Shown here piece by piece: positions 19,086 through 19,538 of a DNA stretch of 64,000 nt. The position numbers were made by a program, and so were the translations under genes. The stretch is from Pseudomonadota bacterium. Its GTDB lineage: Bacteria > Babelota > Babeliae > Babelales > CAIQNR01. The DNA lies in the NCBI GenBank assembly GCA_027487215.1, contig JAIYDZ010000006.1, positions 135,762-199,761 on the forward strand, written 5' to 3'. Below the pieces are notes generated by a model, which worked only from the letters and a program-made list of their open reading frames with translations, made no database searches and was not told the origin of the DNA. Numbering within the stretch: position 1 is the stretch's first letter; the number at the start of each line of letters is the position of its first letter.

Positions 19086-19262
19086 GCATTATTATTCCGT
19101 TCTATTTACCAATTTTAATATTTGGGGGCGTTCCCACGCAGGGCAAGAGGGAGTACTGGTCAACCCCCTCTTAACTCCCTGACCTTTTAATACGACGAGC
19201 CCGATGCCTACGAAGAATTGCTGACGCAATTTTATCGCTTACATTGTGCGCTGATGAGGATT
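19086..19262 (-). ncRNA. Candidate structured RNA (arm A of the inverted repeat)
   Basis: Local hairpins AATTGC-GTCA-GCAATT (19216..19231) and AAGAGGG..CCCTCTT. About 52 percent G+C over 19121..19260 by hand count. Confidence 0.3.
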
Positions 19263-19371
19263 TCTTGTACACGATCCGTTTTTACCAATTCATATAGATT
19301 GGCTTATGTCCGTAGCCCCTGGATGGCCTGTCGACTTTTTCAAAATAAATAATTTAGTAAGATACCAAATA

Positions 19372-19538
19372 AGCGCGCCATGCAGGCGACAAAACGCCGT
19401 CAGGCGTTCTTCGTAAGCATTGCGTCGCGTGTATTGAAAAAGAGATGGGGGTCTAGGGGGGTCAGCTCAGGCACCCCCTTTGTGCTGCCTGCATAAGGCC
19501 CTGCAAACTTGAAAATTAAAAATACGGAATAACAATGC
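19372..19538 (+). ncRNA. Candidate structured RNA (arm B of the inverted repeat)
   Basis: Hairpin AACGCC-GTCA-GGCGTT (19393..19408) at the position homologous to the arm A hairpin, with three compensatory pair changes. There is also an ATGCAGGC..GCCTGCAT closing stem. About 58 percent G+C over 19371..19500 by hand count. Confidence 0.3.

Follow-up and report, generated by a model that had tools for sequence, protein, structure and literature searches.

A G+C-rich, pseudo-palindromic insertion beside gltX in a Dependentiae genome, with hairpins recurring in both arms

The gltX locus

The window, the whole 64-kb stretch of DNA analysed here, belongs to a Dependentiae (TM6) genome. The exact proteins of the locus recur in three Logan assemblies, and of about 5,000 homologues of the glutamyl-tRNA synthetase (17587-19023) few are named, those mostly as 'Candidatus Dependentiae'. 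Gene order is constant across the relatives fetched (acylphosphatase, gltX, small ORF, amino-acid permease, 470-490-aa protein, rpsU, rbfA). The small ORF, a 90-aa gene in the window, lies beside gltX in all relatives; its product is 90% identical to the syntenic ORF in relative L011 and 61% in L012, and has no match in Pfam or NCBIfam. The 476-aa protein (21286-22716, +), conserved at this locus in all relatives, is likewise without a match in the two databases.

In the window gltX (+) and the 90-aa gene (-) are convergent, and the 607-nt gap between them is occupied in large part by a pseudo-palindromic element. The features are:

17587-19023, + strand: gltX (glutamyl-tRNA synthetase; Pfam tRNA-synt_1c and Anticodon_2), left neighbour, 3' end towards the element
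19083-19541, no strand: whole pseudo-palindromic element, 459 bp; self reverse-complement match at E 1e-27 (blastn); absent in sister genomes
19083-19100, + strand: left terminal inverted repeat ATGGCATTATTATTCCGT, 16/18 complementary to 19524-19541
19125-19179, - strand: arm A domain 2, with an outer stem, P2a (19146-19171, a G-run/C-run hairpin) and P2b (19133-19143)
19199-19249, - strand: arm A hairpin H1, with the inner stem-loop AATTGC-GUCA-GCAATT (19216-19231) and the conserved block ATGCCTACGAAGAA (19204-19217)
19253-19371, no strand: A+T-rich centre, not palindromic, 35% G+C, holding a block (19301-19325) in common with the L039 element
19375-19425, + strand: arm B hairpin H1, with the inner stem-loop AACGCC-GUCA-GGCGTT (19393-19408) and the block TTCTTCGTAAGCAT (19407-19420)
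19447-19501, + strand: arm B domain 2, with an outer stem, P2a (19455-19480) and P2b (19483-19493)
19524-19541, + strand: right terminal inverted repeat ACGGAATAACAATGCAAT, pairing with the left repeat
19631-19903, - strand: 90-aa gene, function unassigned, kept in relatives; right neighbour, 3' end towards the element

Much of this layout had been read from the letters in a first-pass annotation, and its description of the gap holds. No ORF of 60 aa or more is present, the longest being 52 aa. The arms are indeed G+C-rich around an AT-richer spacer: G+C content is 51.8% in arm A (19120-19258) and 59.0% in arm B (19372-19505), as against 35.4% in the centre (19259-19371) and a window mean of 37.8%. 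Arm B is the 120-nt peak of G+C in all 64 kb (0.60, mean 0.378, sd 0.051), richer than rnpB, which is, as had been said, the only other G+C-rich non-ORF stretch in the window. Arm A and arm B are inverted homologues of each other (67% identity; E 9e-15 and 2e-14, arm vs arm, blastn). Their outermost 15 nt, GCATTATTATTCCGT and GCATTGTTATTCCGT, match at 14/15 positions as claimed, or 16/18 when extended, and these terminal repeats are the best-conserved part of the window arms (89%). The block TTCTTCGTARGCAT reported in both arms, and the pair ATGCAGGC..GCCTGCAT closing arm B, were found again.

Further repeats and motifs were observed in the element. A direct repeat, TCCGTT(CTA)TTTACCAATT, flanks the G+C-rich core of arm A (19096-19114 and 19274-19290; p about 0.01-0.02), and a weaker counterpart flanks the core of arm B (p about 0.1). 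Because they bracket the G+C cores, these repeats could mean that the cores were inserted into an older A+T-rich palindrome. Promoter-like hexamers are mirrored, facing outward, at the two ends (TTAAAA-16-AATAAT at 19091-19118, -; TTGAAA-16-AACAAT at 19509-19536, +). The L039 element described below lacks the outer layer carrying these hexamers, and stops at P2b.

Filled and empty sites

The distance from gltX to the small ORF varies among relatives as follows:

Window: 607 nt
L011: 156 nt (GltX 92% identical to the window protein)
L012: 23 nt (GltX 75% identical)
L037: -4 nt (GltX 66% identical)
L039: 446 nt, occupied by an unrelated ORF (GltX 65% identical)

The element is missing at the same junction in L011, L012, L037 and L039 despite synteny, and is therefore a lineage-specific insertion. 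Comparison of filled and empty sites thus shows that the element arrived as inserted DNA. When it is excised in silico, the flanking window sequence can be aligned with the spacer of L011, at or beside a 10-bp terminator-like hairpin. The ends of the element (ATGGCAT and ATGCAAT) resemble a single TGCAT in L011, a motif that is itself palindromic and set in much diverged flanks; no clear target-site duplication was seen in the comparisons of window with L011 and of L039 with L041. The window and L011 differ at gltX by a dS of 0.77, the two window arms by a K of about 0.43, so that on timing alone the inverted duplication may have followed the window/L011 split.

The same junction holds extra small ORFs (one to three, without Pfam match) in one clade: L039 at 11453-11875, L041 at 11453-12678, L043 at 9746-11326 and L044 at 1702-2873. 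Both flanks of gltX seem to be spots of DNA gain and loss.

Related elements in other Dependentiae

A covariance model (R1), built from the two window arms alone, matched L039 (GCA_965658655.1) twice and in opposite orientations, at 9594-9640 (-) and 9889-9939 (+). These matches mark an element of 354 bp (9591-9944) with arms of about 60% G+C and an A+T-rich centre; its inverted ends (44 nt, 9591-9634 and 9898-9941) are 80% complementary. It resides upstream of gltX, with the native promoter of the acylphosphatase gene to one side and that of gltX to the other, thus on the side of gltX opposite to that of the window element. The orthologous right arm is found in L044, the nearest to L039 of the four sampled genomes of the clade by synonymous divergence (dS 0.84), and the site is empty in L041 and L043. 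A block of the window centre, GGCTTATGTCCGTAGCCCCTGGATG (19301-19325), resembles L039 9790-9826 on the opposite strand (p about 0.015), by which match the centre is asymmetric and the element has a polarity.

Taken together, the window element and the L039 and L044 elements form, by sequence comparison, a small family of non-coding, G+C-rich, pseudo-palindromic Dependentiae insertions. A description of this family was found neither in the libraries searched nor by full-text literature search, the Babela genome paper included. An HMM of the five arms, run over about 237 kb of Dependentiae loci, recovered only the known arms, and the 82 kb available from the source genome, 64 kb of window and 18 kb of flanks, gave no second copy. 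Scanning for the H1 core motif gave 6 hits, none true, in the GTDB species representatives (185,579 bacterial and archaeal species, one genome per species), 20 hits in JGI metagenomes, and none in IMG/VR, where two further motif scans were also empty. The 6 and 20 hits are attributed to chance, lying inside coding sequence of the type M-P/A-Y-E-E.

Another spacer of this neighbourhood is conserved. Upstream of the acylphosphatase gene, L039 9326-9523 (also in L041 and L043) is kept at about 90% between species with a gltX dS above 1; its minus strand carries a perfect TTGACA, and the spacer may be only a promoter and leader, or more.

Hairpins and compensatory changes

Each arm folds into three hairpins. 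H1 has an outer stem GCGA...UCGU, a variable inner stem and, in both window arms, the inner loop GUCA. P2a is a G-run/C-run hairpin with a loop of 10-12 nt, followed by a few U (2-4); P2b is a small terminal hairpin. The 6-bp hairpins pointed out earlier lie where they had been placed (AATTGC/GCAATT at 19216-19231, AACGCC/GGCGTT at 19393-19408) and differ by three consecutive compensated pairs. The identical GTCA loop ascribed to both arms is correct for inverted copies; on the + strand arm A reads TGAC (AATTGC-TGAC-GCAATT). The second hairpin, AAGAGGG/CCCTCTT in one arm and AGGGGGG/CCCCCTT in the other, was found as described.

When the two window arms are aligned, 31 consensus pairs result, 7 of them changed on both sides and none broken, a structure biased by its derivation from the same two sequences. 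An unbiased test, in which the MFE structure of one arm was mapped onto the other, left 22-24 pairs unchanged, 12-14 altered yet still paired, and 12-14 broken; of the pairs predicted from a single arm, the other arm thus breaks about a quarter. The covariation claimed between the window arms is therefore real but partial, about half of the changed pairs being kept and about half broken. It persisted when three homologous arms from other species were added.

H1, P2a and P2b recur in all five arms of the window, L039 and L044. P2a is paired in 97.5% of the cells of the five-arm alignment, and 4 of its 8 pairs changed on both sides. The three L039 and L044 arms share 28 pairs, 6 of them compensated, some between the orthologous L039 and L044 copies. 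The right arms of these two genomes differ by a K of about 0.42, as against a gltX dS of 0.84, with compensatory changes in H1, P2a and P2b. Over these five arms from three genomes, with structures partly derived from the same sequences, the alignments show that the hairpins are maintained by compensatory substitutions between arms, between species and between orthologous copies.

Strand preference

The folded strand is the outward one, reading away from the centre, in both arms. In each of the four complete arms the outward strand folds better than the inward one, by 5-16 kcal/mol. The wobble cells of P2a on the outward strand are five G-U and zero A-C, and the pairs that survive a change on one side only are 6-8 on the outward strand vs 0-2 on the inward. 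Since the preferred strand differs between the arms, neither a single-stranded DNA intermediate nor a replication-strand mutation bias explains it; divergent transcription from the centre would, through selection on the RNA or through transcription-linked mutation. Part of the mirrored bias could be due to the latter, rather than to selection.

Searches against known families and coding capacity

A hit to a known RNA family had been named as an outcome to look for, and no credible match to the element was obtained. Among the 4,227 models of Rfam release 15 nothing reached the gathering score over the window element or the L039 element; with permissive filters the lowest E values were 3.6 (window element) and 0.081 (L039), from implausible eukaryotic or viral models. 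The sole Rfam match in the window is RNase P RNA, bacterial class A (44595-44954, +; 221 bits). ARAGORN found no tRNA or tmRNA, and blastn found no match to the element in phage and plasmid collections. No transposase, integrase, reverse transcriptase or recombinase gene is present among the window ORFs. A CUGAUGA in arm A, reminiscent of a hammerhead core, is not kept in arm B and lacks the following GAAA; it was set aside as a chance match.

No sigma-70 consensus promoter was detected in the centre of the window or the L039 element. The promoter of gltX in L039 (GTGACG-17-TATAAT) fits the sigma-70 pattern, so that the miss in the centres has some meaning. Intrinsic terminators (G+C stem, loop of 3-8 nt, at least 5 T within 8 nt) were detected neither in window 18900-20000 nor in L039 9300-10020; P2a, with its longer loop and shorter U-run, is only terminator-like.

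The element does not encode a protein. An origin from a protein-coding fragment, or from small-peptide genes, duplicated in inverted orientation has next to no probability, even though stop-free frames of 47-58 codons cross both arms with similar peptides, and both retain a 6-codon mini-ORF (ATG CYT ACG AAG AAY NNC TGA). In none of the six frames do the differences between the arms favour a codon position (6-7 per position in H1, 9-13 in domain 2), the compensated stem changes are non-synonymous, the arm A frame lacks an ATG start, and none of the 8 ORFs of the element is called as a gene in a collection of 15 billion proteins. The mini-ORF itself (19204-19224, +; 19400-19420, -) runs on the inward strand without a Shine-Dalgarno sequence; its retention probably just follows from that of the conserved block.

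Breaks in independent assemblies

In independent short-read assemblies of this organism (Logan, k=31), contigs break off within the element, at 19228 and 19418. The arms share no 21-mer, and cannot by themselves cause these breaks. Two other contig ends of the same assemblies coincide to the base with true 34-nt repeats. Since contig ends are exact at known repeats, the breaks mean either that a second exact copy (about 19199-19447) exists in the sample, or that alleles start at 19229 and end at 19417. The L044 contig begins in the centre of its element, and the L040 assembly passes through its copy. Two SNPs of L014 (19253 and 19261) were given no weight, being near a contig end in a sample whose other contigs have junk ends.

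A centre that flips or varies between cells, acting as an invertible or hypervariable switch, would account for the breaks, the two contig ends bracketing the centre and the L044 contig starting in that of its own element; an 8-bp inverted repeat is found at those very points (GACGCAAT at 19223-19230, ATTGCGTC at 19419-19426). The rule that is exact at the two known repeat boundaries predicts ends at 19230 and 19419 for inversion at this 8-mer. The ends observed are off by 2 and 1 nt, and inversion at this repeat was rejected. With no recombinase gene in the window, an unbroken assembly in L040, and the L014 SNPs discounted, a switch of this kind is highly improbable.

Exact repeats are found elsewhere in the window. 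At 55530-58090 three adjacent paralogous genes for secreted proteins (starts 55534, 56810 and 57461) all open with MEGISMKKLLLFSLL, and a fourth, unrelated secreted-protein ORF (56162-56809) sits among them. The 5' ends of the three paralogues are exact repeats of 34-36 nt, and Logan contigs of the same organism terminate exactly there.

Origin and possible function of the element

The first-pass annotation had offered three readings of the inverted repeat: two oppositely directed copies of a structured RNA, a single large RNA of pseudo-symmetric form, and a MITE-like element. That of two divergent structured RNAs gains from the outward sense of the structured strand, that of a MITE-like element from the insertion with terminal inverted repeats, and a combination of the two fits the data best. 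In the reading favoured here, tentatively, the insertion carries a cassette from which two divergent structured RNAs would be made. The A+T-rich, non-symmetric centre is flanked by two inverted modules, each about 130-180 nt long, and the outward strand of each folds into the same three hairpins. The centre would drive divergent transcription, each arm yielding a putative structured RNA of about 130-180 nt that ends near P2a/P2b. The element would in this way be a cassette of twin small RNAs carried by an insertion. The likeliest roles of such RNAs are in the persistence or spread of the element itself, or as stable 3'-end or insulating structures on neighbouring transcripts.

The main rival, which must be considered possible if rather unlikely, is a plain foldback or MITE-like non-autonomous transposon, whose repeats and hairpins are signals for a transposase encoded elsewhere and whose RNA is incidental. 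Presence and absence at two sites in two lineages, both harmless intergenic spots, suit a MITE, as do the small size (under about 600 bp) and lack of coding capacity, the terminal inverted repeats of both elements, a G+C content foreign to the host genome, and the breaks in assemblies, which could mean extra copies or heterogeneity as for a mobile repeat. A plain MITE is harder to reconcile with the lack of a further copy in the 82 kb of the same genome or the roughly 237 kb of related loci, of a true core-motif match in the species genomes, JGI metagenomes and IMG/VR, of a convincing target-site duplication, and of a transposase or integrase gene in the window. Moreover, the orthologous copies keep their hairpins by compensation after insertion, which a dead MITE would not do unless homogenised by other copies, and a single-stranded DNA intermediate cannot account for a folded sense that changes strand from one arm to the other. 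A further candidate is a cis-acting RNA. Read-through from the convergent genes would transcribe the entire element, and the RNA would form a single long, imperfect hairpin, serving to terminate or stabilise the two mRNAs or being a substrate of RNase III, in the manner of ERIC, REP/BIME and Correia repeats. At full length the element has a folding energy of -161.5 kcal/mol on the + strand (z -6.0) and -180.8 kcal/mol on the - strand (z -8.7), it sits between two convergent 3' ends where L011 has its 10-bp terminator-like hairpin, and P2a is shaped as a weak two-way terminator (A-run, G/C stem, U-run). A consensus terminator was nevertheless not detected in the intervals scanned, and compensation preserves hairpins inside the arms, not the pairing between arms that are only 67% identical. 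The L039 element, moreover, is placed between two promoters directed away from it, so that read-through cannot reach it. This explanation is judged unlikely.

A more specific possibility is a mobile cassette whose mirrored arms would encode a new class of structured RNA, guide- or bridge-type, employed in trans by a recombinase, transposase or nuclease with its gene at another locus. Such a role would explain why the hairpins are conserved after insertion, why the folded strand points outward into the flanks, and why the sites differ between species; it is judged very unlikely.

Relation to known repeats

Correia elements of Neisseria, ERIC/IRU of enterobacteria and the Rickettsia palindromic elements are small, non-coding, intergenic foldback repeats with terminal inverted repeats, and can act on RNA when transcribed. 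The window element is like them in being small, non-coding and intergenic, in folding back, and in its presence or absence between relatives. It differs in being 3-4 times longer, with arms only 67% alike, each with a conserved hairpin set of its own whose folded strand reads outward on either side; in the DNA searched, neither a multi-copy distribution nor a clear target-site duplication was seen. REPIN/BIME are inverted doublets of REP hairpins moved by RAYT transposases, whose stems covary since their shape, and not their sequence, is recognised. The nesting of hairpins in a larger inverted repeat is common to both, and REPIN/BIME too are often found between convergent genes. REP units, however, are 20-40 nt long, feature a GTAG head, and reach tens to hundreds of copies per genome, whereas the units described here are about 150 nt long with three hairpins, have no REP-like head, and gave no further copies in the DNA searched. 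GTAG occurs in arm A only, inside a stem, and arm B has GTAA.

The mobile G+C clusters, or double-hairpin elements, of A+T-rich fungal mitochondrial genomes are likewise G+C-rich, hairpin-forming spacer insertions in an A+T-rich genome. Those are 30-80 nt long, abundant and organellar, in contrast to the bacterial element of the window. The omega RNA of TnpB/IscB and the bridge RNA of IS110 are structured, G+C-rich RNAs of 100-250 nt at the end of an element and read toward the flank, as are the putative RNAs of the window element. They lie beside the gene for their own nuclease or recombinase, unlike the window element, which has none in the window, no Rfam match, and two mirrored copies.

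Dependentiae are obligate parasites of protists with small genomes. To our knowledge, reports of mobile elements in them are very few. In the Babela massiliensis genome paper a single IS4 transposase is listed (PMC4378268). In an A+T-rich genome, not only a housekeeping RNA gene but also an insertion can show up as a G+C island, and the five-arm alignment is a ready probe for scanning all Dependentiae genomes. If non-coding DNA here indeed moves between sites while keeping a strand-specific, RNA-like fold, it would represent either the first family of small RNAs to be defined in Dependentiae, or mobile DNA of a new, hairpin-bearing type.
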